A stretch of 64,000 nucleotides of DNA from Rhodocyclaceae bacterium (GTDB taxonomy: Bacteria; Pseudomonadota; Gammaproteobacteria; Burkholderiales; Rhodocyclaceae). The position numbers and the translations under genes are program-made. This document shows, in pieces, positions 5,311 to 47,422 of this stretch; the stretch's first letter is position 1, and each line of letters starts with the position of its first letter. A model generated the notes under the pieces. It saw nothing but the letters and a program-made list of their open reading frames with translations. It was not told where the DNA came from and searched no databases. The stretch is from NCBI GenBank assembly GCA_046295975.1, contig JBKBMG010000004.1, forward strand, positions 69,403 through 133,402. The letters run 5' to 3'.

Positions 5311-5346
5311 CAACGCCCGCCCCCGAACAGAGAGGAACTCAAACAA

Positions 5347-6768: not shown

Positions 6769-6798
6769 GGCATGGCCCGCCGTTGCGCGGGCCATGCC
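6769..6798. terminator. Bidirectional stem-loop between convergent genes
   Basis: The perfect 12-bp stem 'ggcatggcccgc' / 'gcgggccatgcc' has a 6-nt loop. It lies between the barrel-gene stop (6666) and the pobA stop (6819). Confidence 0.6.
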
Positions 6799-6818
6799 CA
6801 TGTTTGGTCGCCCCAGTC

Positions 6819-8057
<1,239 letters not shown>

Positions 8058-8107
8058 CTATAGGAGCGGGTAGCGTCGTGTGCTTGAACAAAGCAGGGGC
8101 ATTAGTT

Positions 8108-8124
8108 GTACTTTTCGAAAGTAC
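8108..8124. promoter_or_regulatory. Inverted repeat GTACTTT-N3-AAAGTAC in the pobA/pobR divergent region (candidate operator)
   Basis: The dyad is seen directly in the sequence. It is intergenic only if pobR starts at ATG 8146 rather than GTG 8080. Confidence 0.3.
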
Positions 8125-8145
8125 TTGCCCGCGACGGTGACCACC

Positions 8146-9039: not shown

Positions 9040-9324
9040 CTCTGGTGAGGCGATACATTCCAAAAAGGTCTTGATCGGGATGAGTTATGTGGAATTGAGA
9101 TAGCTGCTAGTGCGCATGACGTGTGTTGGGAAGGTGGCGCGTTCAACACAATGTGCCCGTCGGTCGTCCAGCGACGCGGATCCACCTGTGCGGTGTGGTG
9201 GGCGGTCCGCCGACTGTGAATCGCAAAGAGGCATTTCCGACGTGCCTTCTTGGACGCGGCGAAAGGGAAGGAGCGCCGGGTCGAGTTCCATCTCCTCTCC
9301 GACTCGTACGCTTCGATGCTTGGG

Positions 9325-9363
9325 CCCGGTCGTTTCCGCAAGGAAGACCGGGTCGATTTTTTT
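9325..9363 (+). terminator. Canonical intrinsic terminator with no ORF directly upstream
   Basis: The stem CCCGGTC (9325-9331) / GACCGGG (9346-9352) is followed by TCGA and a 7-T run (9357-9363). It lies about 320 nt downstream of the pobR stop. Confidence 0.6.
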
Positions 9364-9452
9364 CCGGCAAGGCGTTCCGGCAAGACGCGTGGCACGGGGG
9401 AAAGAAGCGGGTGAGGTTCGCCGGTGTGAGGCCCGCCGGTATCGGTTGAGGT

Positions 9453-15543: not shown

Positions 15544-17838
<2,295 letters not shown>

Positions 17839-17888
17839 GCCACGCTCGCCACCCCACGCCAACGCGGATTCAAAGGAGCCAGCAAGCG

Positions 17889-21986: not shown

Positions 21987-22334
21987 GGCGCAGCCGGCGC
22001 CTGCCTTGGCGGAGCGTTGTCCGATGGACTTGCCAAGTCTTGAACTCCCGCGCATTACCACGCAGATCGCAGGACCTGCCAGCGCGCCTGTCGCTGACAT
22101 GATTCATGTGAGGTAGTGACGCGGCGCGGCAGTACGCCGGACTCCTGCCATGGCGAGGCTCCGCGCCATGCCGTATCGTTCTAGCAGCTATACCCCGCGC
22201 CGTGCCGCATGTCTTCGCCATGGTTACACAATGCCGTGAGACGACTGGGGCCGGCACACTGCGCCTAGGTTCTGCGGTGATCCGGCTCGGTTGTCCAGAT
22301 GCAGCACACAAAAAGAAGAACGTGGAGGGACAGC

Positions 22335-23465
22335 ATGGCAGGAAACAAGATGGCGTCTTGGCGGACGCTGCGGACAGCAGGCATGGGCTGCATGCTTGCG
22401 GTGTACGGTGTGGCAGGAGCCGCCGATATCGTGATAGGGCAGAGTCTGACGTTGTCAGGCGAGGATGTGGAGATCGGACGCGTGATTCGCTCCGGCGCCG
22501 AGGCTTATGTTGGCCACGTCAATGCCACGGGGGGGATAGACGGACGTCGTCTGAGGCTTGTGACGCTGGAAGACCACGGTGATGTAGAGATCTACCGACG
22601 CAATCTCGAGACCCTGATTACCCGCGACGGTGCCGTGGCCATCGTCAATTGCGTGGGCGATCGTTTCTGCCGCGTCGCCGCTGAGGTGGCCGACGCGCGC
22701 GGGGTGCCGCTGGTCGGTGCGATATCGGGTTCGTCCGCGTTGAGGCAGCCCGGCCGCATGGTGTTTGCGCTGCGGCCGGGTTACGCGGTCGAGGCGGAAG
22801 TGTTGACGCGGCAATTGAAGTCCGTCGGGGTTGCGCGGGTTGCGCTGGTCACCGAGGCGAAGCTGGCTTCTGACCAGCAGGCGGTGCTGGCGCGGGTGTT
22901 GGGCGCCGGTGGTCTGGAGGTCGTCGCGATGACTCTGGCCTCGCCCGCAGAACCCGACCTCGCGGCGTTGTTGCGGCAACTGGAGACGGGCGGTTTTGAT
23001 GCCGTTGTGCTCGAGTTCGGTGCCTCGACCTACGGCGTTCTGGCAGCGGGCGGATATGGCAGTCACCCGGCCTGGCCGGGCGTGATCGCCACCCTGGCCG
23101 ATCCCACCCTGCGACTGTTGGCGACGACGTTTCGTGGGCGCATGATCGGTTTCACCATGCTCGTACCGAATCCCGAGCATACGGCACTGCCGGTGGTGCG
23201 CGAATTTCAGCACCACGTCGAACACTATTCCGAGGCCTCAGCCTTGTACCTGGACGGTTTCGAGGCCTACCTGAACCTGCGCGTCTGTGCCGAGGCGCTG
23301 ACTCGGGCGGGCGGTGCCACGCCGGACAAGCTTGTGGCTGCGCTGGACCGGCTTTCAACGCTGGACCTGGGTGGCTTCACCGTGCGCGTGACCCGCGGCG
23401 AACGCGACGGGCCGGAGTGGGTGGATGTCGGCGTGGTATCGCGCTCGGGCCTGTTCCTGAATTGA
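22335..23465 (+). CDS. Periplasmic substrate-binding protein, type-I (Leu/Ile/Val-binding-like), with no adjacent ABC partners
   Basis: Signal peptide MAGNKMASWRTLRTAGMGCMLAVYGVAGA, then ADIVIGQSLTLSGE...YVGHVNATGGIDGRRL. GGAGGG Shine-Dalgarno sequence 5 nt before ATG 22335; the track ORF begins at 22299. Confidence 0.82.
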   Translation: MAGNKMASWRTLRTAGMGCMLAVYGVAGAADIVIGQSLTLSGEDVEIGRVIRSGAEAYVGHVNATGGIDGRRLRLVTLEDHGDVEIYRRNLETLITRDGAVAIVNCVGDRFCRVAAEVADARGVPLVGAISGSSALRQPGRMVFALRPGYAVEAEVLTRQLKSVGVARVALVTEAKLASDQQAVLARVLGAGGLEVVAMTLASPAEPDLAALLRQLETGGFDAVVLEFGASTYGVLAAGGYGSHPAWPGVIATLADPTLRLLATTFRGRMIGFTMLVPNPEHTALPVVREFQHHVEHYSEASALYLDGFEAYLNLRVCAEALTRAGGATPDKLVAALDRLSTLDLGGFTVRVTRGERDGPEWVDVGVVSRSGLFLN

Positions 23466-26480: not shown

Positions 26481-28340
<1,860 letters not shown>

Positions 28341-28475: not shown

Positions 28476-28491
28476 TTAACAAACTTGTTAA
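28476..28491. promoter_or_regulatory. Inverted repeat TTAACAA-AC-TTGTTAA in an AT-rich tract (candidate UAS/operator)
   Basis: The dyad is seen about 125-140 bp upstream of the -24/-12 element. That distance is typical for enhancer-binding-protein UAS sites. Confidence 0.35.
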
Positions 28492-28615
28492 GCGAAACGC
28501 CACGGCTTTCGATGATGCGTTGCCGCAGCATGCCGGCCGTGTGTCGGCACCATTCGCAGACGGCAGGGGGGCGAGCGCGAATGCTGCGGTGCGGGGATCG
28601 GCTGCGTGGCGGATG

Positions 28616-28631
28616 TGGCACGGCGATTGCG
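28616..28631 (+). promoter_or_regulatory. Sigma54 (-24/-12) promoter
   Basis: 'TGGCACggcgaTTGCg' has canonical GG-N10-GC spacing. It lies 72 nt upstream of ATG 28703 and next to a divergent sigma54 activator gene. Confidence 0.65.
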
Positions 28632-28702: not shown

Positions 28703-30193
28703 ATGGAGGTAATCGAAGTGTCAGACGAAAACAGCAGCGTGCTCAGCGAGTCGCTTTGGCGGGACAGCTTGTTCGATGGCGAATGGCGGGTGCCGAGCGG
28801 TGGCGGGCGGGCGGTGCTTGAGCCGGCCACCGGCGAGGTACTGACCAGTGTTGGTGTGGGCGACCCGTCGGATGTCGCGATGGCGGCGCGCAGCGCATCC
28901 GAAGCGCAAAAAGCCTGGCATGCGACGCCGCCGCGCGAGCGTGCCAACGTGTTCCATCGCGCCGCGGCGTTGATCGAGACCGAGGCCGCCGCACTGGCCA
29001 GCTGGATCGCCCGCGAGACCGGCGGGATCCTGCCCAAGGCCGAGCATGAGGTACGCGAGGCGGTCATCATCCTGCGCCGCGCGGCGGCCATGGTGCTGGA
29101 TCCGCAGCAAGGAATCGTGCTGCCGTCGGTGCCGGGGCGCCTCTCCTACGCCAAGCGCATGCCGCTGGGTGTGGTGGGCGTGATCTCGCCGTTCAACTTC
29201 CCCCTGATCCTGTCGATTCGCGCGGTGGCGCCGGCGCTGGCATCAGGCAACGCGGTGGTGCTCAAGCCCGATCTGCGCACACCGGTGACGGGTGGCTTCC
29301 TGATCGCGCGCGCCTTGCAACTGGCCGGACTGCCGGCGGGCCTGCTGCACGTGATACCGGGCGGGGCGGACGCGGGCGAGGCGCTGTGCACCGATCCGCA
29401 TGTGCGAATGATCGCATTCACCGGATCCACCGCGGTCGGGCGCCGCGTCGGTGAGCTTGCCGGCCGTCATCTCAAGAAGGTCATGCTCGAACTGGGCGGC
29501 AAGAACCCGCTGATCGTGCTCGAGGACGCCGATCTGGATCTGGCGGCAAGCAATGCGGCGTGGGGGGCCTGGTTGCATCAGGGCCAGATCTGCATGGCAT
29601 CGGGGCGGATTCTCGCCCATCAGTCGATTGCGGCGGAGCTCACCGAACGGCTGGTGAAGAAGGCGGCGATGCTGCCAGTCGGCGACCCCGCCAGCGCTGC
29701 GGTGGCGATCGGCCCGATTATCGACGAGCGCCAGCTCGAGCGGGTGGATGCCATTGTCCAGGACAGCGTCAAGGCCGGCGCGCGACTGGAAGCAGGGGGG
29801 CGGCGTGAGGGGCGTTACTACCTGCCGACCGTGCTGTCGGGCGTGCGGCCCGGCATGCGTGCGTTCCACGAGGAGTTCTTCGGCCCGGTGGCAAGCGTGA
29901 TCGCCTTTGCCGACGACGAGGAGGCGCTGGCCCTGGCCAACGACACCGAGTACGGCTTGTCGGCGGCGGTGATCTCACGTTCGGTCGGTCGCGCGATGGC
30001 GCTGGGCGATCGGCTGCAGGCCGGGATGGTGCATATCAACGACCAGACCGTCAATGATGAATGCACCAATCCCTTTGGCGGATGCGGTGCCTCGGGAAAT
30101 GGCGGCAGCATCGGCGGGCCGGCCGACCTGGACGAGTTCAGCCAGTGGCGATGGGTCACCGTCAAGGAGGCGCCGCCGGCCTACCCGTTCTGA
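28703..30193 (+). CDS. Aryl-aldehyde (benzaldehyde-type) dehydrogenase
   Basis: 496 aa from MEVIEVSDENS.... ALDH motifs ISPFNFP, FTGSTAVG, LELGGKNP and GQICMASGR. The C-terminal ...NDQTVNDECTNPFGGCGASGNG resembles XylC-type enzymes. Confidence 0.88.
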   Translation: MEVIEVSDENSSVLSESLWRDSLFDGEWRVPSGGGRAVLEPATGEVLTSVGVGDPSDVAMAARSASEAQKAWHATPPRERANVFHRAAALIETEAAALASWIARETGGILPKAEHEVREAVIILRRAAAMVLDPQQGIVLPSVPGRLSYAKRMPLGVVGVISPFNFPLILSIRAVAPALASGNAVVLKPDLRTPVTGGFLIARALQLAGLPAGLLHVIPGGADAGEALCTDPHVRMIAFTGSTAVGRRVGELAGRHLKKVMLELGGKNPLIVLEDADLDLAASNAAWGAWLHQGQICMASGRILAHQSIAAELTERLVKKAAMLPVGDPASAAVAIGPIIDERQLERVDAIVQDSVKAGARLEAGGRREGRYYLPTVLSGVRPGMRAFHEEFFGPVASVIAFADDEEALALANDTEYGLSAAVISRSVGRAMALGDRLQAGMVHINDQTVNDECTNPFGGCGASGNGGSIGGPADLDEFSQWRWVTVKEAPPAYPF

Positions 30194-30360: not shown

Positions 30361-31983
30361 ATGTCTGCATACACCACGCTCAAGCGTCGGCCCCTGGCCG
30401 TCGCGGTTGCCGCCGCTACGGCGCTGTGGCTGCCCCAGGCGGGCGCGTTCCAGTTCGATACCGGCAATCCCGACCTGCGCGTGCGCTGGGACAACACCTT
30501 CAAGTACTCCAACGCCTTTCGCGTGAAAAGCCGCTCCGATCTGCTGGTCGCGGACGTGAACTACGACGATGGCGACCGCAATTTCGGTCGTGGCCTGATC
30601 TCGAACCGGATCGACTGGCTGAGCGAGTTCGACGTCCGCTACCGTGACGTGGGCCTGCGCCTGAGTGGCGCGGCGTGGTACGACTCGGTCTATAACCGCC
30701 GCAACGACAATGACTCGCCCTTCACCAACAACGCCCTGAGCGTGCCGCACGACCGGTTTACGCGCCAGACGCGCAAGTTGCACGGGCGCAAGGGAGAGCT
30801 GCTGGATGCCTTCGCCTACGCCAACGTCGACCTCGGCGACATGCGCGCCAACCTGCGCGCGGGTCGCCATTCGCTGGTGTTCGGCGAAACCCTGTTCTTC
30901 GGCGCCAACGGCATCGCGGATGCTCAAGGGCCGATCGACATCATCAAGCTGCTGACGGTACCGAGCACGCAGTTCAAGGAAGTGCTGCGCCCGGTCAACC
31001 AGATGTCGGGCACGCTGCAGATCAACTCGGCGCTGTCGTTGGGCGCTTACTACCAGTTCGAGTGGGAGGAAAGCCGCCTGCCGGGCGTTGGCAGCTATCT
31101 GTCCAACATCGACTGGGTGGGACCGGGTACCGAGTCGCTGCTGGCCGGACCGGGCGTGCTGTGGCGCAAGATCGCCGACGTCACGCCGCGCGATTCGGGG
31201 CAGGGCGGCCTGCAACTGCGCATCACGCCGGATGGCAGTGACATCGAGTACGGTCTGTACGTTGCGCGCTACCACGCCAAGACGCCGTCCGGTTTCTACT
31301 TCGACCCGGTGACCGAGTCGATTCGTACCGTCTACGGCGAAGGCATTCGCACCTTCGGTGCCAGCGCCACCACCTCGATCGGCCAGCTCAACCTCGCCAC
31401 CGAGGTGTCGCTGCGCAAGAACGCGCCGCTCAACAGCGACCCGGTGATCTCCATCGGTCAGACCGCAGACAACCGCGGCAACATCGGATACGCGGTGGGC
31501 AATACCGCCCACGCCAACCTGTCCGGCATCTACGTGCTGCAACCGGGGGCGCTGTGGGGCGGTGGGGCGGTGGTTGCCGAACTGGCCTGGAACCGGGTGC
31601 TGTCGGTGGACAAGAACCGCGAGGCGCTCGACCCCAACACCACGCGCGATGCCTGGGGGATGCGCATGATCTTCGCTCCGGCGTACTTTCAGGTATTGCC
31701 TGGGCTGGACCTCGAGGTGCCGATTGGTCTCGGTTACAACCTCAAGGGCCGCTCCGGTGCAATCGGCAACTTCAACGGCGGAGCGTCGCGCGGCGGCGAC
31801 CTCAGCCTGGGGGTGAACGGCACCTACCAGAACACCTGGAAGTTCGGCGCTAACTACGTGCATTTCTTCGGCGGCGAATTCAGCTTCGTGACCCCGCAGA
31901 ACTCGCCGGGGCCGGTGCTCTCGTTCAAGCAGACCCGCAAGGACCGCAACTTCGTGTCCTTCCACCTCCAGCGCAGCTTCTGA
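30361..31983 (+). CDS. DUF1302-family outer-membrane protein
   Basis: 540 aa. Signal peptide MSAYTTLKRRPLAVAVAAATALWLPQAGA, then FQFDTGNPDLRVRWDNTFKYS typical of DUF1302. The composition is beta-rich and the protein ends ...FHLQRSF. AAGGAGG Shine-Dalgarno sequence. Confidence 0.8.
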   Translation: MSAYTTLKRRPLAVAVAAATALWLPQAGAFQFDTGNPDLRVRWDNTFKYSNAFRVKSRSDLLVADVNYDDGDRNFGRGLISNRIDWLSEFDVRYRDVGLRLSGAAWYDSVYNRRNDNDSPFTNNALSVPHDRFTRQTRKLHGRKGELLDAFAYANVDLGDMRANLRAGRHSLVFGETLFFGANGIADAQGPIDIIKLLTVPSTQFKEVLRPVNQMSGTLQINSALSLGAYYQFEWEESRLPGVGSYLSNIDWVGPGTESLLAGPGVLWRKIADVTPRDSGQGGLQLRITPDGSDIEYGLYVARYHAKTPSGFYFDPVTESIRTVYGEGIRTFGASATTSIGQLNLATEVSLRKNAPLNSDPVISIGQTADNRGNIGYAVGNTAHANLSGIYVLQPGALWGGGAVVAELAWNRVLSVDKNREALDPNTTRDAWGMRMIFAPAYFQVLPGLDLEVPIGLGYNLKGRSGAIGNFNGGASRGGDLSLGVNGTYQNTWKFGANYVHFFGGEFSFVTPQNSPGPVLSFKQTRKDRNFVSFHLQRSF

Positions 31984-32073
31984 CCGCAAGGCGGGGCGCC
32001 GCGCGCGGCCGTCCTGCCCGAAACCGGCGGGGGTGCCCCCCGACTACCCAAATCGATACGGAGACAGACAATC

Positions 32074-33435
32074 ATGATCAAGCTTGCACTCAGGGCCACG
32101 CTCACCGGGCTTGCCTTTGCGCTTGGCGCCCAGTTCGCGGTCGCCGCGGTGACCGCCGAGGAGGCCGCCCGCCTCGATTCCACGCTCACGCCGGTGGGCG
32201 CCGAGCGTGCCGCCAATGCTGCCGGCACCATCCCGGAATGGACGGGTGGCTACACCACCGTCGCGGCCGGTTACAAAAACGGTGAGCCGCGCCCCGATCC
32301 GTTTGCTGACGACAAACCGTTGTTTTCGATCACCGCCGCCAACCTGGCCGAACACGCCGACAAGCTCAGCGATGGTGTGAAGGCCTTGTTCGCCCGGCGG
32401 CCGGAGTTCCGCATCGACGTCTATCCCACCCGTCGCACCGCCGCGGCACCGCAATGGGTGTATGACAACGTCCGACGCAACGCCACCACAGCGCATTTGG
32501 CGGATGACGAATCCTCGGTGAGCGGCGCCTACGGCGGCATTCCATTTCCGATTCCCGCCAGCGGTGCCGAGGTGATGTGGAACCACCGGCTGTCGTGGTA
32601 CGGACAGTCGGTCGAGTATGCACTGCGCACCTTCGTCGTCACCGCCGACGGCCGCCGCGCACTTGCCAGCGAGGGCGACGAGATCCAGCAGTGGCCGTAC
32701 TACTACCCGAGCGGCAGCCTGGAAACCTATGGTGGCCACTACATGCTGGGGCGTTTCATCGTCACCGGTCCGGCGTCCAAGGCGGGCGAAGCCATCCTGG
32801 TGCATGACGCCTCCACCAGCAACAAGTCGCGCGACATCTGGCAATACCTGGTGGGGCAGCGGCGGGTACGCAAGGCACCTTCGGTGGCCTACGACACCCC
32901 CGATTTCGTGACTTCCGGAGTGGGCCTGTTCGACGAGGCCTTCATGCTGTTCGGGCCGATCGACCGGCACGATTTCAAGCTGGTTGGCAAGCGCGAGCTG
33001 TACGTCCCGTACAACAACAATCGCGCCGCGCTGGTGGCCATCGACGACCTCGTCGGCCCGCAGTTCCTCAACCCCGACCACGTGCGCTGGGAGCTGCACC
33101 GGGTGTGGGAGGTCGAGGCCACGCTCAAGCCCGGCAAGCGTCACACCGTGCCCAAGCGCAAGTACTACATCGACGAGGACTCCTGGCAGATCGTGCTGTT
33201 CGATGGCTGGGACGCCAAGGGCGACCTTTCGCGCATGAACTACTCGCTTACCTACCTCGTGCCCGAACTGCCGGCCCTGGTGACCAACGTCATGTGGGGT
33301 GGCTATGACCTGCAGACCGGCGCCTACTACTTCAATGCCGCGATGAACGGTGCCTCGCCGCACTATCGGGTGCGAGAGCCGGTGTCGGAGAACAACTGGA
33401 GTCCGACCGAACTGGCCAACCAGGGAGCGCGCTGA
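32074..33435 (+). CDS. DUF1329-family periplasmic protein (LolA-like fold family)
   Basis: 453 aa. Signal peptide ...ALGAQFAVAAV, then TAEEAARLDSTLTPVGAERAANAAGTIPEWTGGY, the characteristic DUF1329 N-terminus. Confidence 0.8.
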   Translation: MIKLALRATLTGLAFALGAQFAVAAVTAEEAARLDSTLTPVGAERAANAAGTIPEWTGGYTTVAAGYKNGEPRPDPFADDKPLFSITAANLAEHADKLSDGVKALFARRPEFRIDVYPTRRTAAAPQWVYDNVRRNATTAHLADDESSVSGAYGGIPFPIPASGAEVMWNHRLSWYGQSVEYALRTFVVTADGRRALASEGDEIQQWPYYYPSGSLETYGGHYMLGRFIVTGPASKAGEAILVHDASTSNKSRDIWQYLVGQRRVRKAPSVAYDTPDFVTSGVGLFDEAFMLFGPIDRHDFKLVGKRELYVPYNNNRAALVAIDDLVGPQFLNPDHVRWELHRVWEVEATLKPGKRHTVPKRKYYIDEDSWQIVLFDGWDAKGDLSRMNYSLTYLVPELPALVTNVMWGGYDLQTGAYYFNAAMNGASPHYRVREPVSENNWSPTELANQGAR

Positions 33436-33437
33436 GC

Positions 33438-34598
33438 ATGAGGTCCCGCCGCCCCTTCCGTCGGCTTGCCGTCCTGCCGGCCACGCGCCTCCTCCTGTCC
33501 TCGTGCGCTGCTCTCCTCGGCGCTGGACACGCGTGGTCGGCACCCTTGTCCGAGCCGGCGGTGGCCCCCGTGCCGCCGGTGCTGGTCCAGCCGTCGCCAC
33601 AATTGCCGGCGGCGGCCCGCCAGGCGATGCTGGCGCTGGCACGCGCCGGCGACCGCCTGGTGGCGGTTGGCGAACAGGGCATCGTGCTGCTGTCCGACGA
33701 CCATGGCGCGAACTGGCGCCAGGCGCGCGTGCAGGTGTCGGTCACGCTCACCGCGGTGCGCTTCGCCGACGCGCGTCGAGGTTGGGCGGTGGGGCACATG
33801 GGTGTGGTGCTGGCGACCGAGGACGGCGGCGAGACCTGGCAAACCCGGCTGGACGGGGTAACCGCGGCACAACGCGTACTGGCTGAAGCCGAAGCCACCG
33901 CGCGGGCGGCCACGGCGGGAGCCCGCGAGCGCGCCGAGCGGGCTCTGGAGGACGCCCGCCGGCTGGTCGAGGAGGGGCCGGACAAGCCGTTTCTGGACGT
34001 GTTCTTCATCGATGCGCAACGTGGCTTCGTGCTTGGCGCCTACAACCTGATCTTCCGTACCTCCGATGGCGGGCAGTCCTGGCAACCGTGGAGCGCCCGC
34101 GTGCCCAACCCCATGGGCATGCACTTGTACGGCATGGCGGCGACGGCCGAGGCGTTGTTCGTGGTTGGTGAGCAGGGCACCTTGCTGCGCGCCGACCTGG
34201 GTGGCGAGCGCTTCGAGGCACTCGATTCGCCCTACGACGGCAGCTTCTTCGGCGTGGTGGCGATGCCGGATGGCGCGGTGGTGACCTTCGGCCTGCGCGG
34301 ACATGCCTTCCGCTCGGATGACGGCGGTGACACCTGGATCGAGCTCGACAGCGGGCAGGGCGAGAGCATCGCCGCCGGCGCGCTGCTGGATGACGGTCGG
34401 GTGATGCTCTCCAGCCAGGCCGGAGCGGTGCTGGTAGGTGCCGACGATGGACGGCGCCTGATGCCGCTGGAGGGCGTGCCGCCGCTACCGCTTGCCGCCG
34501 TCGCCCAAGCGGCCGACGGCGGCCTGGTGGCGGCCGGGCTGATGGGGGTGCTGCGCCTGAATGGCCTGTCTGACGTGGCGGGGAGCGCCTCCCGATGA
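33438..34598 (+). CDS. BNR/Ycf48-like beta-propeller protein, secreted
   Basis: 386 aa with a signal peptide and a possible lipobox (LLSSC). It has four SxDxGxxW repeats (SDDHGANW, TEDGGETW, TSDGGQSW, SDDGGDTW). It starts 2 nt after the DUF1329 stop. Confidence 0.8.
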   Translation: MRSRRPFRRLAVLPATRLLLSSCAALLGAGHAWSAPLSEPAVAPVPPVLVQPSPQLPAAARQAMLALARAGDRLVAVGEQGIVLLSDDHGANWRQARVQVSVTLTAVRFADARRGWAVGHMGVVLATEDGGETWQTRLDGVTAAQRVLAEAEATARAATAGARERAERALEDARRLVEEGPDKPFLDVFFIDAQRGFVLGAYNLIFRTSDGGQSWQPWSARVPNPMGMHLYGMAATAEALFVVGEQGTLLRADLGGERFEALDSPYDGSFFGVVAMPDGAVVTFGLRGHAFRSDDGGDTWIELDSGQGESIAAGALLDDGRVMLSSQAGAVLVGADDGRRLMPLEGVPPLPLAAVAQAADGGLVAAGLMGVLRLNGLSDVAGSASR

Positions 34599-34698
34599 GC
34601 CTCGTGCCGTCGCGTCATGCCGCCGACGCACGCCGCGCCACATCCCCGACCGTCCTTTGCGGTGGTGCCTACCCGCATTCGTTTTCAAGGAGTCCGTC

Positions 34699-37296
34699 TT
34701 GACCGACAACACCCGCGCCGGCCCTCCGCCGGCATCTCCGGGCGCGGAAGCGTTCCAGCGAGGCTCAGGCCCGATCCTGGAACGCTTCGTCTTCAATCAC
34801 CGCCCGCTCGTGCTGCTGCTGTGCCTGCTGCTCACCCTTGGTCTGGGCTGGCAGGCGAGCAGGCTGCAACTGAACGCCAGCTTCGAGAAGATGATTCCGA
34901 CCGGGCATCCGTTCATCGCCAATTTCCTCGCCAACCGCGCCGATCTGGCGGGGCTGGGCAACGCCCTGAGGGTGGCCGTGGCGGTGCGCGAGGGCAACAT
35001 CTTCACGGACGACTATCTGCGGACCCTGGCGCAGATCAACGACGAGCTCTATTTACTGCCGGGCGTGGACCGGCCCTACATGAAGTCGTTGTGGACCCCG
35101 GCCACCCGCTGGATCGCCGTCACCGAGGAAGGCCTGGACGGCGATACCGTCATCCCCGGCGACTACGACGGCTCGCCGGAAAGCCTTGAGCAGGTGCGCC
35201 TGAACGTACAGCGCTCCGGTGAGATCGGCCAACTGGTGGCGGAGGACTTCCGCTCCAGCATCGTCTATCTGCCGCTGCTCGACTTCGATCCGACCTCCGG
35301 CGCGCCGCTCGACTATGCCGAGTTCTCGCGCCAATTGGAGGAAATACGGGCCAAATACACCAACGACTACATCGACATCCACATCACCGGTTTCGCCAAG
35401 ATCGTTGGCGACCTGATCGACGGATTGCGTCAGGTGTTGCTGTTCTTCCTGCTGGCGGTGGCGATCGCTACCGCGGTGCTGTTCGCCTACACCCGCTCGC
35501 TGGGCAGCGCGTTGTTGGTGATCGCGTGCTCGCTGGTCGGGGTGTTGTGGCAGCTTGGTCTGCTCGCCACCTTCGGGCTCGCGATCGACCCCTACTCAGT
35601 GCTGGTGCCGTTTCTGGTGTTCGCCATTGGCGTAAGCCATGGCGCGCAGAAGATGAGTGGCGTGATGCAGGACATCGCCCGCGGCGTGCCGCGCTACGTT
35701 GCCGCGCGCCACACCTTCCGCCGGCTGTTCCGCACCGGCATGGCGGCGCTGGTTACCGACTCGGTGGGGTTCGCCGTGCTGCTGGTGATTGACATCGGCG
35801 TGATCCGCGAACTGGCGATGACCGCCAGCCTCGGCGTGCTGGTACTCATCCTCACCAACCTGGTGCTGCTGCCGGTGTTGCTGTCCTACTTCGGCACTGG
35901 CCGTCATTCCGCCGCGCGCGGTGCACGTGCGCTTGCAGATGCTGCGGGCGAGGGCGGCACGGGGGCGTGGAAAACGCTGCCGGAGACGGGTGCGATGGCC
36001 CGTCTGTGGGCCACGCTCGCCCGCTTCACCGCGCGCGGCCCGGCAACGTGCGCACTGGCGGTGGCTGCCGGGTTGGCGGTGCTGGGGGTGAGCGTGGGCA
36101 AGCACGTGCAGATCGGCGACCTCGACCCGGACGCGCCCGAACTGCGCGCCGATTCGCGCTACAACCGCGATTCGGCTTTCATGGTGGACAGCTACGCCGC
36201 CAGTGCCGACATCTTCGTCGTCATGGTGGAAACCCCTGTGGACGGCTGCACCCGCTACGAAGTGTTGTCGCGGGTGCGGGCGCTTACCGGGCGGCTCGAC
36301 CAGTTGCCCGGTGTCGAGAGCACCAATTCCATGGCCAAGCTGTCGCGCTTCGCGATGGTCGGATACAACGAAGGCAACTTCAAATGGCTGGAGCTGATCC
36401 CCAACGATGCCGCCCTCGGCGCCGTGCAGACGCGCGCCCCGCGCGAACTGCTCAACCAGGACTGCAGCCTGCTGTCGATCTACGTCTATCTGCAGGACCA
36501 CAAGGCCGCCACCCTCGCGCGGGTGGTCGAGACGGTCGAGGCCTTCGCCCGCGAGCACGATGACGACACCACCCGCTTTCTGCTTGCGGCCGGCAACGCC
36601 GGCATCGAGGCCGCGACCAACATCGTGGTGGAACGTGCGATGCGGCAGATGCTGTACCTCGTGTATGGCGTGGTGATCGTACTGTGCTGGCTCACCTTCC
36701 GAAACTGGCGCGGTGTGGTGGTCGCGGTGCTGCCGCTGATGCTCACCTCGGTATTGTGCGAGGCCTTGATGGTTGCGCTGGGCATGGGCGTGAAGGTCGC
36801 CACGCTGCCGGTGGTGGCGCTGGGCGTGGGAATCGGCGTGGATTATGCGCTGTACGTGTTGTCGGTGGTGCTGGCCGGCATGCGCGAGGGGATGAGCCTG
36901 GCCGATGCCTATCGCCGCGCGCTGCGTTCCACCGGTCAGGTGGTGCTGCTCACCGGCGCCACACTCGCCGCCGCGGTGGCCACCTGGGTGTTCTCGCCGA
37001 TCAAGTTCCAGGCCGACATGGGCATCCTGCTGGCCTTCATGTTCCTGCTCAACATGCTCGGTGCACTCATCCTGCTGCCGGCGCTCGCCCACTTCCTGCT
37101 GCGTCCGGTGGCGGTCACGGGCCTCAGCAGCGCCGCCGCCGCGATGACCGATGCAGGGCCTTCGGACCCGACGCTTGCCCCCGATACCCGCCCCAATCTC
37201 CATCCCAACCCAGAGCAGGACGATACCCCCGCGCTTCTCAGGAGATCCCAAGATGCCCGCCACAACGCTGGACAACCAGCTTCTGAAACTGCTTGA
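34699..37296 (+). CDS. RND-superfamily (COG1033/MMPL-type) inner-membrane transporter
   Basis: About 865 aa with two blocks of about 6 transmembrane helices, each following a large soluble loop. A TTG start at 34699 lies 6 nt after AAGGAG. The alternative ATG at 34561 would overlap the upstream gene by 38 nt. Confidence 0.82.
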   Translation: MTDNTRAGPPPASPGAEAFQRGSGPILERFVFNHRPLVLLLCLLLTLGLGWQASRLQLNASFEKMIPTGHPFIANFLANRADLAGLGNALRVAVAVREGNIFTDDYLRTLAQINDELYLLPGVDRPYMKSLWTPATRWIAVTEEGLDGDTVIPGDYDGSPESLEQVRLNVQRSGEIGQLVAEDFRSSIVYLPLLDFDPTSGAPLDYAEFSRQLEEIRAKYTNDYIDIHITGFAKIVGDLIDGLRQVLLFFLLAVAIATAVLFAYTRSLGSALLVIACSLVGVLWQLGLLATFGLAIDPYSVLVPFLVFAIGVSHGAQKMSGVMQDIARGVPRYVAARHTFRRLFRTGMAALVTDSVGFAVLLVIDIGVIRELAMTASLGVLVLILTNLVLLPVLLSYFGTGRHSAARGARALADAAGEGGTGAWKTLPETGAMARLWATLARFTARGPATCALAVAAGLAVLGVSVGKHVQIGDLDPDAPELRADSRYNRDSAFMVDSYAASADIFVVMVETPVDGCTRYEVLSRVRALTGRLDQLPGVESTNSMAKLSRFAMVGYNEGNFKWLELIPNDAALGAVQTRAPRELLNQDCSLLSIYVYLQDHKAATLARVVETVEAFAREHDDDTTRFLLAAGNAGIEAATNIVVERAMRQMLYLVYGVVIVLCWLTFRNWRGVVVAVLPLMLTSVLCEALMVALGMGVKVATLPVVALGVGIGVDYALYVLSVVLAGMREGMSLADAYRRALRSTGQVVLLTGATLAAAVATWVFSPIKFQADMGILLAFMFLLNMLGALILLPALAHFLLRPVAVTGLSSAAAAMTDAGPSDPTLAPDTRPNLHPNPEQDDTPALLRRSQDARHNAGQPASETA

Positions 37297-38242
37297 ACAA
37301 GGTCGCGCACTGGGCGTGCCCGACTTCGCCGACCTGCCCCCGGCCGCGGCGCGCGAAGTCTACCGCATGCTGGTGACCACCCATGATGCGCCGGCCATCG
37401 ACCTGCCGGTTGAAGATCGGGCGATTCCCGGCCCGGGCGGTGAACTGGCACTGCGCATCTATCGCCCGCCGGGCGACGTGGTGCCGCGCGGCGCAGTGCT
37501 GTACCTGCACGGCGGCGGCTTTGTGGTCGGTTGCCCCAACGACTACGACGGTCTGGCGCGCAGCCTGTGCGCACAAAGCGGCTGCGTGCTGGTGCTGCCG
37601 GACTATCGCCTGGCGCCCGAGCATCTGTTTCCCGCCGCGGTGGAAGATGCGTGGGCGGCGCTGGCGTGGTTGGCGGCAAATGCCGACGAGATCGGCTGCG
37701 TCGACGCGGACGGTCAGGCCCGCATCGCGGTTGCTGGCGACAGTGCCGGCGCCAACCTCGCCGCCGTGTGTGCGCTGCTCGCGCGCGACCGGGGCGGCCC
37801 GGCGCTTTGCCAGCAAACGCTGATCTATCCGGTGACCGTGGTGGATGGCGCGCGCTTCGAATCCCGCCGCACCTATGGTGAAGGGCTCACCCTGAGCACG
37901 CGCTCCATGCACTACTTCACCTCCCATTACCTGGGCAGCGAGGACTTTCTGAACAGCGACCACGTGCGCGACTTCCGCGCCGCGCCGCTGGAGGCGGCTG
38001 ATCTCTCCGGCGTGGCGCCGGCGCTGGTGCTGGTGGCGGGCTTCGACCCCTTGCGCGACGAGGGCGTGGCCTATGCCAGCGCCCTGCAGACTGCCGGCAG
38101 CGACGCGGTGCTGATCGAGTACGCCGGGCTGGCCCACGGCTTCATCAACATGTCGGGCACGGTGGAAGCGGCGCGGCTGGCCGTGGCCCAGGTCGCCAAT
38201 GCCTGGCGTCACGCGCTTGCTGCGCCGGGAACAGGCCAATGA
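37253..38242 (+). CDS. Alpha/beta-hydrolase esterase (HSL / family IV)
   Basis: 329 aa with the oxyanion motif LHGGGFVVG and the nucleophile elbow GDSAGANL. The start overlaps the RND gene by 44 nt and has an AGGAG Shine-Dalgarno sequence. Confidence 0.88.
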   Translation: MPATTLDNQLLKLLEQGRALGVPDFADLPPAAAREVYRMLVTTHDAPAIDLPVEDRAIPGPGGELALRIYRPPGDVVPRGAVLYLHGGGFVVGCPNDYDGLARSLCAQSGCVLVLPDYRLAPEHLFPAAVEDAWAALAWLAANADEIGCVDADGQARIAVAGDSAGANLAAVCALLARDRGGPALCQQTLIYPVTVVDGARFESRRTYGEGLTLSTRSMHYFTSHYLGSEDFLNSDHVRDFRAAPLEAADLSGVAPALVLVAGFDPLRDEGVAYASALQTAGSDAVLIEYAGLAHGFINMSGTVEAARLAVAQVANAWRHALAAPGTGQ

Positions 38243-38270
38243 GCGGCTTCGAGACATCCGGTGTAGTGGC

Positions 38271-38310
38271 CGGTGGCGGCGGTGGCCGCAACCAGCCACC
38301 GCCGCCACCG
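38271..38310 (+). other. Perfect 16-bp GC-rich stem-loop within the operon
   Basis: 'cggtggcggcggtggc' (38271-38286) pairs with 'gccaccgccgccaccg' (38295-38310) across an 8-nt loop. Translated, it gives the odd GGGGGRNQPPPPP peptide. Confidence 0.7.
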
Positions 38311-38322
38311 ACCACGCGCGCT

Positions 38323-39348
38323 GTGCGCTTTCACCGGCTTGGCGGTCCGGAGGTGTTGCAGATCGAAACCGTCACGCTGGCGCCGCCGGGTCCGGGCGAG
38401 GTCTGCATCCGCGTCGAGGCGCTGGGGTTGAACCGGGCTGAGGCGGCGTTTCGTGGCGGACACTACCTGGAGCTACCGAATCTGCCGTCGGGGCTGGGCT
38501 ATGAGGCGGCCGGCGTGATCGTGGCCTTGGGGCCGGATGTGCCGGGCTTCGCGCCTGGTGATCCGGTCTGCGTGCTGCCGGCGATCTCGATGACACGCCA
38601 TCCGCTGCAGGCCGAATACGCGGTGGTGCCGGCCAGCGCATTGGTGGCGCGCCCCGCAGGTCTGGACGCACCGCAGGCGGCGGCGCTGTGGATGGCGGCA
38701 CTGACCGCCTACGGTGGCCTGGTCGACATTGGCAAGCTCGGTCCAGGGGACGGGGCGATCGTCACCGCGGCCTCCAGCAGCGTCGGCATCGCCGCGTTGC
38801 AGCTTGCGCGCGCGCTCGGTGCGATCCCGATCGCGCTTACCCGGGACCCGGGCAAGGTCGAGGCCTTGCGCCGCCATGGTGCCGAGCACGTCATCGTCGG
38901 CACGCCGGACGCAACCCTCGCCAGCCGCGTTGCAGCCGTTACCGGCGGCCTCGGGGCGCGTCTGGCCTTCGATCCGGTGGCCGGGCCCACGGCCCTGCCG
39001 CTGGCGGCGGCGCTGCGTCGCGGCGGTACGCTGGTGGTGTACGGCAACCTCGGCGGTGAGGCCGAGCACACCCCGTTTCCGTTCTACGCGGCGGTCGGCA
39101 AGGGACTGAGCATGCGCGGCTACCTGGTGTTCGAACTGCTCGCTGACGCGCGACGCCTGGCGGCGGCGCGCGGATTCATCGAATTGGCGCTGGCCGCTGG
39201 CACGCTGTTTCCGGTCATCGACCGGGTCTTTCCGTTCAACGACATCGTGGGTGCCTACCGTCATCTGGAGTCGAACGCCCAGGTCGGCAAGGTGGTGGTC
39301 AGCCTGGATCACGGCGGCGCCCCGTTCACCCCCGAGGAGCATTCATGA
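38323..39348 (+). CDS. NADPH:quinone oxidoreductase-like medium-chain reductase
   Basis: MDR fold with RFHRLGGPEVLQIETV...PGPGEVCIRVEALGLNRAE and GSSVGIAALQLA. The start was taken as GTG 38323, downstream of the hairpin. ATG 38239 (ATGA overlap with the esterase stop) is the alternative and would add 28 Gly/Pro-rich residues. Confidence 0.8.
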   Translation: MRFHRLGGPEVLQIETVTLAPPGPGEVCIRVEALGLNRAEAAFRGGHYLELPNLPSGLGYEAAGVIVALGPDVPGFAPGDPVCVLPAISMTRHPLQAEYAVVPASALVARPAGLDAPQAAALWMAALTAYGGLVDIGKLGPGDGAIVTAASSSVGIAALQLARALGAIPIALTRDPGKVEALRRHGAEHVIVGTPDATLASRVAAVTGGLGARLAFDPVAGPTALPLAAALRRGGTLVVYGNLGGEAEHTPFPFYAAVGKGLSMRGYLVFELLADARRLAAARGFIELALAAGTLFPVIDRVFPFNDIVGAYRHLESNAQVGKVVVSLDHGGAPFTPEEHS

Positions 39349-40487
39349 CTACCCATTCGATCGATTCCCCGAGCCTGACCATTCGTGCGGCGGTGGCCCG
39401 TGCCCACCATGCACCGCTGAATCTCGAAACCCTGACCCTGGAGGCGCCGCGCGATGATGAGATCCTGGTGCGCGTGGTGGCCACCGGGGTATGCCACACC
39501 GACATCGTGGTGCGCGACGGCATGCTGCCGACGCCACTGCCGGTGGTGCTGGGCCACGAGGGGGCGGGCGTGGTGGCGCGTGTCGGCCTCGCGGTGACCA
39601 AGGTCGCGCCCGGCGACCACGTGGTGATGAGCTTCAATTCCTGCGGCGCCTGCCCGAGTTGTGCTGACCACGCGCCCAGCTACTGCCACGAGTTCTTTCC
39701 GCGAAATTTCTTCGCCACGCGCAGCGATGGCAGTACTGCGCTGTCGCGGGAAGGTGAGCCGGTACATGGCAATTTCTTCGGCCAGTCCTCTTTCGCCTCC
39801 CATGCCTTGTGCCATGAGCGCAATGTCGTGAAGGTACCTGCCGACGTGCCGCTGCGCCTGCTCGGGCCGCTGGCCTGCGGCGTGCAGACCGGGGCCGGTG
39901 CGGTGATGAACGCGCTTCGGGTTGGCCCTGGGCGCAGCTTCGCGGTGTTCGGTGCGGGTTCGGTGGGGCTGTCGGCGGTGATGGCGGCGCGGGCGGTCGG
40001 TGCGAGCCGGATCATCGCGGTCGACCTCAATCCGGACCGACTCGCCTTCGCGCGGGAGATCGGCGCCACCGACAGCGTGGACCCGCGCACCACCAATGCC
40101 ACGGCCGAGATCATGCGCCTGACCGGTCACGGGGTGGACTACGCGCTGGACACCACCGGCCTGGCATCGGTCATCCGTGGCGCGGTCGAAAGCCTGGCGC
40201 CGCGCGGTGCCTGCGGCCTGCTTGGCGCATCCGGCCCGGGCAGTGAGGTCGTGCTCGACGAGGTGCATTTCATGAGTGGTGGCCGTCGCCTGATCGGCAT
40301 TGTCGAAGGCGATGCCCAGCCCGACCTGTTCATTCCCGAACTGATCCGCCTCTATCAGGCTGGCCGCTTCCCCTTCGACAAGATGGTGAAGTACTACCCT
40401 TTCGAGCGCATCAACGACGCCATCGCCGATTCGGAAAGTGGCCGGACGATCAAGCCGGTCGTGGTGATGGACGAGCGCGCTCAGTAA
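39345..40487 (+). CDS. Zn-dependent aryl-alcohol (benzyl-alcohol-type) dehydrogenase
   Basis: 380 aa containing GVCHTDIVVRDG, LGHEGAGVV, the structural-Zn cysteines (CGACPSCADHAPSYC) and GAGSVGLSAV. GAGGAG Shine-Dalgarno sequence, with an ATGA overlap with the upstream stop. Confidence 0.9.
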   Translation: MTTHSIDSPSLTIRAAVARAHHAPLNLETLTLEAPRDDEILVRVVATGVCHTDIVVRDGMLPTPLPVVLGHEGAGVVARVGLAVTKVAPGDHVVMSFNSCGACPSCADHAPSYCHEFFPRNFFATRSDGSTALSREGEPVHGNFFGQSSFASHALCHERNVVKVPADVPLRLLGPLACGVQTGAGAVMNALRVGPGRSFAVFGAGSVGLSAVMAARAVGASRIIAVDLNPDRLAFAREIGATDSVDPRTTNATAEIMRLTGHGVDYALDTTGLASVIRGAVESLAPRGACGLLGASGPGSEVVLDEVHFMSGGRRLIGIVEGDAQPDLFIPELIRLYQAGRFPFDKMVKYYPFERINDAIADSESGRTIKPVVVMDERAQ

Positions 40488-46477: not shown

Positions 46478-47422
46478 TTGAGCTTTCTTGCCTTATTCGT
46501 CAGCCTTCCCACCAAGGCGTCGACCGGCCGCATGCGTGTCTGGCGCTCTGTCAAGGCGCTGGGTTGCGCGACGCTGCGCGATGGGGTCTACGTGCTACCC
46601 GACTCGGTGGACAGTGCCGCGACGCTCAACGAAGTGGCAGCGCACGCGGTGGAAGCGGGGGGGAGCGGTGAGGTCTATCGACTCTCGGGGTGTGACGAAT
46701 TTCAGGAAGCCGCGCTACGCGCGCTGTTCGACCGGGGGGAGGAGTACGCCAGCATCGCCGAGGAGATCAAAGCGCTCGGGCGAAGTCTGGCATCGCTGGA
46801 CGATGGCGCCGCCGCACGCAAGCTCCAGCCGCTCGTGCGTCGGTTCGAACAGGTCACAGGCATCGATTTTTTCCCCGGGGAGGCGCAGCGGCAGACCTTG
46901 AGCCTGCTGGATGACCTGCGCGACGCGATCACCCGCCGTATGTCGCCCGACGAGCCGACCGCCCGGCAGGCGGGTATTCCGCGATTGGACCGTGCCGACT
47001 ATCAGGGCCGGACCTGGGCCACGCGGGCACGCCCGTGGGTGGACCGACTTGCCTCCGCCTGGCTGATCCGGCGGTTCATCGACCGGAGCGCGCACATCGT
47101 CTGGCTGGCAAGTCCCGCCGACTGCCGCGACGGCTGGCTCGGCTTCGATTTCGACGGCGCGGTCTTCAGCCACGTCGACACCAAGGTCACCTTCGAGACG
47201 CTACTGACGAGTTTCGCACTCGATTCGACTCCCGCGCTGGTCCGGGTGGGGGAACTGGTGCATTGCCTGGACGTAGGAGGGCTCCCGGTCGCGGAAGCGC
47301 CAGGCGTTGAATCACTGCTTGCGGGCTTGCGCGCATCCGAACCCGATGACGACGCGCTGCTCGCCCGCGCGTGCGAACTCTTCGACTGGCTGCTGAAGAG
47401 CTATGAGGAAATATCAGCGTGA
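46478..47422 (+). CDS. chrB: Chromate resistance regulator ChrB
   Basis: 314 aa. The N-terminus ...LPTKASTGRMRVWRSVKALGCATLRDGVYVLP is typical of ChrB. TTG start 7 nt after AAGGAG. Confidence 0.85.
   Translation: MSFLALFVSLPTKASTGRMRVWRSVKALGCATLRDGVYVLPDSVDSAATLNEVAAHAVEAGGSGEVYRLSGCDEFQEAALRALFDRGEEYASIAEEIKALGRSLASLDDGAAARKLQPLVRRFEQVTGIDFFPGEAQRQTLSLLDDLRDAITRRMSPDEPTARQAGIPRLDRADYQGRTWATRARPWVDRLASAWLIRRFIDRSAHIVWLASPADCRDGWLGFDFDGAVFSHVDTKVTFETLLTSFALDSTPALVRVGELVHCLDVGGLPVAEAPGVESLLAGLRASEPDDDALLARACELFDWLLKSYEEISA

Follow-up and report, generated by a model that had tools for sequence, protein, structure and literature searches.

A probable AmeABCD-type envelope transport cassette within a predicted sigma54-dependent operon of aryl-ester, aryl-alcohol and aryl-aldehyde enzymes from a Rhodocyclaceae bacterium

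Described four-gene cassettes and the Rhodocyclaceae locus

The closest described counterpart of the genes studied here is AmeABCD of Castellaniella defragrans, which comprises an outer-membrane DUF1302 protein, a DUF1329/LolA-like protein, a COG4447 protein and an HAE3 transporter of the resistance-nodulation-division (RND) type, and which its authors, who found the cassette conserved in a distinct HAE3 lineage, labelled a tetrapartite exporter (Puentes-Cala and Harder, 2018; PMC6394551). Deletion of ameABCD led to poor growth on monoterpene hydrocarbons, to inhibition by more than 5 mM limonene despite a supply of acetate, and to a higher accumulation of Nile Red (PMC6394551). A search of the literature on HAE3 gave nothing further besides AmeD. 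Here we analyze a stretch of 64,000 nucleotides from a Rhodocyclaceae bacterium (GenBank assembly GCA_046295975.1, contig JBKBMG010000004.1, positions 69,403 to 133,402), referred to as the window, in which genes for a DUF1302 barrel, a DUF1329 protein, a BNR/Ycf48-like propeller and an RND transporter follow one another between the genes for an aryl-aldehyde dehydrogenase (ALDH) and an esterase. Very probably these four genes are an AmeABCD-type envelope transport cassette that is co-regulated with the enzymes around it from one sigma54 promoter under a divergent XylR-type sensor. An earlier note on this DNA, made from its sequence, had called the module uncharacterised; this no longer holds, since the module has the composition and order of AmeABCD, for which deletion phenotypes exist, since its families show co-fitness in sequencing of randomly barcoded transposon insertions (RB-TnSeq), and since they are known from sigma54/XylR-type regulons.

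Further copies of the cassette have been encountered in several bacteria. Price et al. (bioRxiv 10.1101/072470) found the four families to be co-fit by RB-TnSeq in Shewanella, Kangiella and several Pseudomonas, proposed from the pleiotropic co-fitness that a cell-wall component is exported, and pointed to copies in aromatic clusters (Delftia phnK, Thauera pipAB, Comamonas ORF61). In Pseudomonas putida, PP_0765/0766 and PP_2018/2019 are required on Tween 20 and butyl stearate (Thompson et al., 2020; bioRxiv 10.1101/2020.07.04.188060). AlphaFold-Multimer complexes have been published for DUF1302-DUF1329 (ipTM 0.84) and for DUF1329-BNR-RND, and a transport system was proposed (Foldy, PMC10866462; ECLIPSE, PMC13499233). 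Aromatoleum EbN1 has, beside its p-ethylphenol genes, a "solvent efflux" cluster whose dependence on the sigma54 regulator EtpR was shown (Büsing et al., PMC4630880), and COG4447, COG1033, PF07044 and DUF1302 were assigned to the AphR/AphS/AphT regulons, which were read as a solvent-stress response (Suvorova and Gelfand, PMC6449761); from the latter work we infer that the EtpR-dependent cluster is built of these four families. In the methanogenic benzene degrader ORM2a, a cluster of DUF1329, Ycf48-related and MMPL genes is among the most expressed (PMC13101534), and the nanopod/outer-membrane vesicle (OMV) proteome of Delftia includes DUF1302 and DUF1329 proteins. Papers on the catabolism of coniferyl alcohol and monolignols describe other genes (molRKAB, calAB), without the four-gene cassette.

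The cassette families are already known as a unit, also within sigma54/XylR-type aromatic regulons (PMC4630880, PMC6449761), and the cassette is widespread, recurring in gene clusters for terpenes, phenols, polycyclic aromatic hydrocarbons (PAHs), steroids, benzene and esters. Its presence in an operon like that of the window would not surprise a specialist. What is new is the operon family itself: an are-like sigma54 operon that includes the cassette is widely conserved, is frequently linked to hydroxycinnamate and vanillate genes, usually couples the RND gene to the esterase gene and has a counterpart that lacks the cassette.

Promoter, cassette proteins and conservation of the operon

Open reading frames (ORFs) of the window were listed, translated and scanned against Pfam and NCBIfam, and by these calls all features that the earlier note had described were located at their positions (Table 1). 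The element TGGCACGGCGATTGC is the sole exact match to TGGCAC-N5-TTGC in the whole window and lies between the divergent activator gene and the ALDH gene. The activator, whose best NCBIfam match is MobR-like and under cutoff, and its promoter fit the architecture of the XylR/DmpR subfamily, with XylR_N and V4R domains, an AAA+ domain and HTH_8 in the protein, and with a GG-N10-GC element and a pair of upstream activating sequences (UAS) in the DNA. The centres of the two putative UAS sites are about 29 nt apart and lie about 134 nt upstream of the -24 GG, and this spacing is consistent with the XylR/DmpR UAS rule quoted in PMC6449761. The pair is conserved in five of five close relatives: when aligned, the five spacers share the palindrome TTnACAAAnTTGTnAA, another site located about 29 nt farther upstream, and the -24/-12 element. 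An element that agrees with the sigma54 pattern at 9 or more of 11 positions was present in 53 of 66 orthologous regulator-operon spacers, compared to 3 of 66 control regions. All five aligned relatives also keep a GC-rich block, ATGCTGCGGTGC (window 28581-28592), at 24-35 nt upstream of the -24 element, which is unlike an integration host factor (IHF) site.

No sigma70-like site was found on the plus strand inside the operon, and terminator-like hairpins within it were fewer than in shuffled sequence. The cassette genes are separated by gaps of 90, 2 and 100 nt, the RND stop and the esterase start (37253) overlap by 44 nt, and the esterase/reductase and reductase/Zn-dependent alcohol dehydrogenase (ADH) junctions overlap by 4 nt each (ATGA). 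Co-regulation of cassette and enzymes is indicated because the sigma54 promoter and the UAS pair are conserved, an internal sigma70-like promoter and an excess of terminators are lacking, and the downstream genes overlap; the sigma54/XylR-type control that had been proposed for the operon is thereby borne out by promoter, UAS and activator domains. AAGGAGG precedes the ATG of the DUF1302 gene, the RND gene starts with TTG and has AAGGAG 6 nt upstream, and the ALDH gene has an alternative GTG start at 28718 with GGAGG before it. A regulatory RNA or attenuator in the 167-nt gap between ALDH and DUF1302 was rejected (fold z-score of -0.03), and an Rfam scan of the whole window gave no matches. 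At its C-terminus, the RND protein has a cytoplasmic low-complexity tail rich in Pro and Ala, about 65 aa in length (window 37100-37296), inside which the esterase start falls, and tail length and RND-esterase overlap vary among relatives (8, 32 and 44 nt). The reductase begins with a Gly/Pro-rich stretch, GGGGGRNQPPPPP (38239-38320).

Table 1. Regulatory sites and genes of the operon, with positions counted from the first nucleotide of the window
Feature	Position	Strand	Basis
Divergent XylR/DmpR-type sigma54-dependent activator	26481..28340	-	Pfam XylR_N 2.6e-38, V4R 3.9e-13, Sigma54_activat 1e-68, HTH_8
UAS-like site pair: AT-rich half-site and palindrome TTAACAA-AC-TTGTTAA	28446-28463 and 28476-28491		Read from sequence
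Sigma54 -24/-12 promoter TGGCACGGCGATTGC	28616..28630	+	Exact pattern match
Aryl-aldehyde dehydrogenase (ALDH)	28703..30193	+	PF00171, E 1.5e-156
DUF1302 outer-membrane beta-barrel, AmeA-like	30361..31983	+	PF06980, E 1.8e-126, match over full length
DUF1329 periplasmic LolA-like protein, AmeB-like	32074..33435	+	PF07044, E 3.8e-127
BNR/Ycf48-like beta-propeller, secreted, AmeC-like, COG4447	33438..34598	+	PF14870, E 1e-21
HAE3-like RND/MMPL inner-membrane transporter, AmeD-like, 865 aa	34699..37296	+	PF03176, E 5.5e-26
Family-IV (HSL-type) carboxylesterase, cytoplasmic	37253..38242	+	PF07859, E 1.6e-64
MDR-family NAD(P)H quinone/ene-reductase-like protein	38239..39348	+	ADH_N + ADH_zinc_N
Zn-dependent aryl(benzyl)-alcohol dehydrogenase	39345..40487	+	ADH_N + ADH_zinc_N

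Searches with hidden Markov models upheld the assignment of the cassette proteins to DUF1302, DUF1329, BNR/Ycf48 and MMPL-type RND families, and the statement that DUF1302 and DUF1329 are without a defined biochemical function is still true. N-terminal signal sequences were found in the DUF1302, DUF1329 and propeller proteins, and none in the esterase or the dehydrogenases. Sequence searches of the PDB with DUF1302 and DUF1329 gave no matches, and a fold search was used instead. The AlphaFold2 model of the DUF1302 protein (pLDDT 82, pTM 0.80), which ends in ...HLQRSF with a terminal Phe, is a large all-beta barrel; Foldseek returned only generic matches to porins of 16-18 strands (OmpF, OccAB, OccD/K, AlgE, chitoporin) with a TM-score of about 0.5, and the model resembles porins, not TolC. 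The model of the DUF1329 protein (pLDDT 77, pTM 0.82) has an extra N-terminal helical region and matched LolA3 9tp6 (E 1e-16, TMt 0.81), 4z48 of the DUF1329 family, 3bk5 and 3buu, with TMt values of 0.65-0.81 overall and of 0.72-0.81 for the first three, and Pfam gave a weak additional LolA_like match.

The propeller was related by sequence search to the Ycf48 structures 2xbg and 5oj5 (E about 2.5e-13). Four SxDxGxxW repeats had been reported for it, of which two are strict and the other two are TxDGGxxW variants, so that four Asp-boxes are present in a loose sense. It had also been described as secreted or lipidated. Among 66 orthologues, the Cys of its "LLLSSC" motif lacks conservation and the signal peptides are of the ordinary AxA type; the lipoprotein alternative was therefore rejected, and the propeller, with a conserved Sec-type signal, is predicted to be secreted, not lipidated. 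The RND protein, whose Pfam MMPL match passes the cutoff, combines about 12 hydrophobic segments with a pair of periplasmic loops, each about 180 aa long. Its nearest solved structure is the hopanoid transporter HpnN (5khn, E 1.3e-10), followed by Patched and MmpL proteins. The motifs FAIG[MV]SHGAQKMNG in transmembrane segment 4 and GIGVDYALY in transmembrane segment 10 are invariant in 70/70 orthologues, as are S314-H315 in the former and D716-Y717 in the latter segment. H315 and D716-Y717 appear to be located where RND proteins hold proton-relay residues, and their invariance suggests an energy-requiring step. The layout of outer-membrane barrel, periplasmic carrier, propeller and RND pump that had been put forward for the module agrees with these models and with the published AlphaFold-Multimer predictions (PMC10866462, PMC13499233).

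In a survey, one genome per species was scanned with the DUF1329 protein, which led to 80 loci with 56-78% identity. These were analyzed by tblastn with nine window proteins and by ORF clustering with Pfam labels on the clusters, and the counts given here refer to the 77 loci with a called DUF1329. The loci belong to Gammaproteobacteria (Amphritea, Marinobacterium, Pseudomonas, Marinobacter) and Betaproteobacteria (many Burkholderiales, Rhodocyclales), and an Azospirillum plasmid extends the range to Alphaproteobacteria. DUF1302 adjoins DUF1329 in 75 loci, the RND gene is present in 69, and the propeller gene in 61 by ORF call, with about 10 more probably hidden by antisense-ORF miscalls; the four genes are conserved as the unit that they had been taken for. 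A divergent XylR-type regulator occupies the same position as in the window in 61 loci, an ALDH gene occurs in 58, a gene for a 255-aa short-chain dehydrogenase/reductase (SDR) lies between ALDH and DUF1302 in 49, and an esterase gene is of the Abhydrolase_3 family in 31 loci and of the COesterase family in 8 more. Genes similar to ech and vanB were found in 12 loci each and vanA-like genes in 10, and the link of the cassette to aryl alcohol/aldehyde/ester enzymes and to ech-vdh-fcs/vanAB, which had been made from the window, recurs in independent lineages. A HlyD-family gene was not recurrent across the 77 loci. A chemoreceptor (MCP) gene follows the RND gene in 16 loci (cluster c8, L028-L067). 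The same arrangement is seen on a plasmid of P. putida YC-AE1 (L088, 14277-16391), and in Pseudomonas loci a 245-aa protein without Pfam family (cluster c22) is encoded between RND and MCP genes.

The closest relatives of the operon (75-80% identity) have a gene order identical to that of the window. In gene-called relatives, RND and esterase genes overlap by 8 nt (Amphritea) or by 32 nt (two metagenomic relatives), and in about 20 loci the two genes are probably adjacent as well, as their starts lie about one RND length apart. Paralogues at 48-51% identity retain the four-gene unit in other catabolic settings. Sampling of esterase homologues uncovered an orthologous operon without the cassette (L091; JGI metagenome 3300050241, 4573-9945), with regulator (64% identity), ALDH (65%), 255-aa SDR and esterase (51%), and the cassette is therefore an optional accessory of a complete enzyme operon. 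Marine Oceanospirillales (Amphritea, Marinobacterium, Nitrincola) and some Rhodocyclales (Denitromonas, Nitrogeniibacter) harbour these closest relatives, and one operon copy (L081, 199-2207) adjoins IS66 transposase genes; this distribution and this neighbour suggest horizontal transfer of the whole operon. DUF1329 genes occur at 7 places on a Massilia putida plasmid and at 4 each on plasmids of Azoarcus sp. KH32C and Diaphorobacter, and such multi-copy replicons point to a heavy expansion of DUF1329 paralogues tied to catabolic islands. The family forms 2600 clusters at 50% identity among 1.84 billion representative proteins.

The enzymes around the cassette resemble those of known upper pathways. 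The closest solved relatives of the ALDH, whose homologues are annotated as benzaldehyde dehydrogenase, are 4-hydroxybenzaldehyde dehydrogenase 9jw2 (6.5e-109), benzaldehyde dehydrogenase 3r64, vanillin dehydrogenase 9ihb and salicylaldehyde dehydrogenase. Solved structures matched were the benzyl alcohol dehydrogenase of Acinetobacter (1f8f, E 1.7e-113) for the Zn-ADH and Est8 4ypv (E 1e-67) for the hormone-sensitive-lipase-type esterase. The areCBA/AreR genes of Acinetobacter baylyi ADP1 and the TOL genes xylUWCMABN/XylR likewise combine a sigma54 promoter and an XylR-family activator with an aryl-ALDH and a benzyl-alcohol dehydrogenase, and the are operon also has an esterase, which, as cited in PMC12718231, hydrolyses benzyl esters before two dehydrogenases act in turn. 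The combination of esterase, 1f8f-like ADH and aryl-ALDH in one overlapping gene string under an XylR-family regulator suggests an are-like aryl-ester enzyme set in the window. The are operon has no envelope cassette, and the xyl operon carries the FadL-type XylN instead. The reductase matches the PIG3 family (TIGR02824, E 4.4e-48) under the cutoff and has orthologues in few loci (L023, L042, L068, L092). It is weakly similar to curcumin and alkenal double-bond reductases, and it might, speculatively, act on the propenyl double bond of cinnamyl-type aldehydes.

The window cassette and AmeABCD consist of the same four families in the same order, lack a membrane-fusion protein (MFP) or TolC gene and lie within a catabolic island for hydrophobic substrates, a likeness of family composition and gene order; in the Ame case, the proteins are co-induced by substrate. 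However, the Ame island serves anaerobic monoterpene degradation, whereas the window operon encodes aryl-ester/alcohol/aldehyde enzymes, with the cassette between them in one sigma54 operon and in translational coupling with the esterase. Also, the Ame mutant showed no defect on terpenoids that bear a functional group (alcohol, aldehyde, acid), the kind of compound that the window operon would handle. The co-fit genes of Shewanella, Kangiella and Pseudomonas equally represent the four families as one functional unit, and the P. putida copies add an ester-related phenotype and the predicted DUF1302-DUF1329 and DUF1329-BNR-RND complexes. Those copies are core-genome genes, often in two split loci, with LuxR-type regulators and pleiotropic phenotypes, whereas the window copy forms an uninterrupted cassette within a catabolic operon that appears mobile and has an XylR-type activator. 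The putative cassette of EbN1 (ebA326-335) and those of the AphR/AphS/AphT operons of Betaproteobacteria share XylR/NtrC-type, sigma54-dependent, substrate-specific induction beside aromatic genes; they form operons of their own next to phenol, alkylphenol and p-ethylphenol pathways, whereas that of the window is intercalated among pathway enzyme genes. Lipid relays (HpnN, MmpL3 and partners, BstABC, LolCDE-LolA-LolB, NPC2-NPC1) similarly pair a small-loop RND protein or other energised extractor with a soluble, beta-barrel-like carrier of hydrophobic cargo, but they resemble the cassette only as members of the same superfamilies (E 1e-10; fold matches with 10-15% identity), the presumed cargo here is a small aromatic instead of a lipid, and these relays are without a Ycf48-like propeller or a DUF1302 barrel.

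Direction of transport and competing explanations

With a probability of roughly 0.4, the four genes encode an AmeABCD-type four-component envelope transporter that is made together with the are-like enzymes and moves hydrophobic aromatics outward in a proton-driven manner. RND protein and propeller would use the proton gradient to pull an aromatic from the inner membrane or the periplasm and load it onto the LolA-like DUF1329 protein, which would dock on the DUF1302 barrel, with release at or beyond the outer membrane. The net role would be that of a substrate-induced relief valve, by which membrane-active esters and alcohols, and above all aldehydes, would be kept from reaching toxic levels during their conversion by the cytoplasmic esterase, ADH and ALDH into aromatic acids for the neighbouring ech-vdh-fcs, vanAB and lig routes. 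Substrate, protein contacts, energy coupling and direction of transport in this scheme are what we infer from the parts described above. The uphill step of such a relay would be to extract the cargo from the inner membrane and hand it to a soluble carrier, as from LolCDE to LolA or by HpnN and MmpL3, and to our knowledge all characterised bacterial RND-carrier relays run outward. The outward direction is favoured because extraction onto a carrier is the uphill step that would need the conserved charged residues, because the characterised relays run that way, and because the only directional experiments on such a cassette, those on Ame, indicate export or tolerance (PMC6394551). Efflux has a precedent as a means of handling aryl-aldehyde toxicity in Xanthomonas citri (PMC11393088).

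Several points weigh against outward transport. The Ame phenotypes might also result if uptake failed and, after it, detoxification by consumption. The best NCBIfam subfamily of the RND protein is HAE3 (TIGR00921, E 8.6e-42), at 143 bits versus a curated cutoff of 352 bits. On the esters Tween 20 and butyl stearate, P. putida mutants in all four families are less fit, the fourth most abundant protein of ORM2a belongs to DUF1329, and a Delftia DUF1329 gene was reported to be necessary for growth on phenanthrene. Chemoreceptor and periplasmic binding-protein genes share operons with the cassette, the translational coupling of esterase to RND would suit inward delivery of an ester, and expulsion of the pathway's own substrate would be wasteful. 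The earlier proposal that the module could "acquire, process or expel" aromatics spans both directions, and the present evidence is likewise compatible with both.

Most of these points would be accommodated by uptake, in which DUF1302 would admit poorly soluble aryl esters or alcohols through the outer membrane, DUF1329 would ferry them over the periplasm, propeller and RND protein would insert them into the inner membrane, and the esterase would trap them by hydrolysis; we hold this to be a serious rival, only somewhat less probable than outward transport. The P. putida mutants in DUF1302, DUF1329, BNR and RND genes were unfit on Tween 20 and butyl stearate and not on the free acids, the Foldy authors were led by co-folding to a "substrate transport system" (PMC10866462), and the Delftia phenotype and the abundance in ORM2a would also be expected of an uptake system. 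The overlap of RND and esterase genes in gene-called close relatives, the MCP genes of 16 loci together with Peripla_BP_6 genes within the same operons, and the sequence similarity of the RND protein to Patched-type proteins are further points in its favour. No other dedicated outer-membrane channel gene is recurrent in the 77 loci, where competing FadL- or OprD-type channels were represented by sporadic outer-membrane protein genes only, a result that does not decide the direction. The slot of the cassette is taken by XylN or AlkL-type uptake proteins in other upper-pathway operons under sigma54, and in NPC2-NPC1 a carrier passes its cargo to an RND protein for membrane insertion. However, we know of no bacterial RND protein that acts as an importer. 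The solubility and membrane permeance of small aryl alcohols, aldehydes and acetates would make an energised uptake machine superfluous, and a downhill transfer would not need invariant residues resembling a proton relay. The many paralogues per replicon may be explained by each catabolic island having its own regulated copy, not by substrate specificity, and the sole published directional experiments favour export (PMC6394551). A proton-coupled importer, in which barrel and LolA-like shuttle would pass aryl esters to RND protein and propeller in the fashion of NPC2-NPC1 and the esterase would make the transfer irreversible, seems to us less likely than not. If true, it would be the first inward-working bacterial RND system, and the many DUF1329/DUF1302 paralogues would represent a general and so far neglected way of taking in hydrophobic carbon sources such as esters, terpenes, PAHs, steroids and benzene.

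It is distinctly less probable that the cassette remodels the envelope by exporting an endogenous lipid or outer-membrane component, thereby strengthening or reshaping the outer membrane or promoting vesicles or "nanopods", with tolerance and substrate access as indirect effects. Such a role would be in line with the proposal of Price et al., with the DUF1302 and DUF1329 proteins in the Delftia nanopod/OMV proteome, with lipid export by the nearest solved RND relatives (HpnN, MmpL3/4/5) and with the usually acylated cargo of LolA-like carriers, and it would reconcile the phenotypes of tolerance and of growth on insoluble substrates. Yet the cassette lies within a catabolic operon under a small-molecule-sensing XylR-type activator, lipid-synthesis genes are absent nearby, an orthologous operon exists without it (L091), and no candidate cargo can be named. 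A canonical tripartite efflux pump of the AcrAB-TolC/TtgGHI type with partner genes elsewhere is very improbable. An RND-superfamily protein is present and has a weak ACR_tran match (E 9e-4), but this match reaches 17.5 bits versus a cutoff of 28 bits, the protein has 865 aa instead of about 1050 aa and periplasmic loops of just about 180 aa, and the conserved partners are DUF1302, DUF1329 and BNR instead. As had been noticed before, no membrane-fusion or TolC-like gene lies nearby: the 39 window ORFs scanned against Pfam, with 10 kb on each side of the cassette accounted for, include none of the HlyD/MFP or outer-membrane efflux protein (OEP)/TolC families. RND size, ACR_tran score and the absence of MFP and OEP genes in the window effectively exclude such a pump. 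Hardly credible, finally, is the idea that DUF1302 and DUF1329 are surface esterases, as was first suggested for PP_0765/PP_0766 of P. putida (Thompson et al., 2020) in view of ester-specific fitness defects. The fold models effectively refute it, as they consist of a porin-like barrel and a LolA-like fold without an alpha/beta-hydrolase core or a hydrolase match. Pfam gives only the DUF families and the weak LolA_like hit, the operon has its own family-IV esterase, and the idea was withdrawn in the later Foldy paper from the same institution (PMC10866462).

The operon family described here offers a test bed for the cargo and transport direction of this widespread cassette, with aryl esters, alcohols and aldehydes akin to benzyl and coniferyl compounds as candidate substrates, one inducible promoter, culturable hosts (among them Amphritea atlantica, Marinobacterium ramblicola D7, Polaromonas sp. 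JS666, Pseudomonas mediterranea and Azospirillum sp. B510) and a natural cassette-less orthologue for comparison. Knowing the direction would help to engineer either tolerance to lignin-derived aromatics or their uptake, and would decide if bacterial RND proteins can import.

Flanking genes of the window

Upstream of the operon, the window encodes a pobA-like monooxygenase together with an AraC regulator, enzymes of protocatechuate 4,5-cleavage (PrpF, Amidohydro_2, RraA-like aldolase, LigB) and a TRAP transporter, and it further holds the gene of an orphan Peripla_BP_6 protein, vanBA on the minus strand and a gene for a GntR regulator. Downstream, a MarR regulator gene (minus strand) is followed by ech (ECH_1), vdh (Aldedh), fcs (AMP-binding) and an Amidohydro_2 gene. 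The earlier note had described these surroundings correctly. The orphan Peripla_BP_6 binding protein (22299-23465) is encoded between the TRAP genes and vanB, with an ABC permease absent nearby, and members of this family also flank the cassette in Rhodoferax (L085, 7015-8154 and 14998-16119). A plasmid origin of the window was considered and rejected, as there was no long near-identical plasmid match and only about 75% identity to Ralstonia benzaldehyde dehydrogenase genes. Two long ORFs of 439 and 346 aa, at 5347-6666 (plus strand) and 16822-17862 (minus strand), have coding-like GC3 and no Pfam family at E<=1e-5; the latter may be a wrong-strand call within the lig cluster. Chromate-resistance genes chrB-chrA directly follow the ferulate genes (window 46478-48762), and flagellar genes (fliC-like, fliK-like, ycgR-like) are located at 55.5-62.4 kb.

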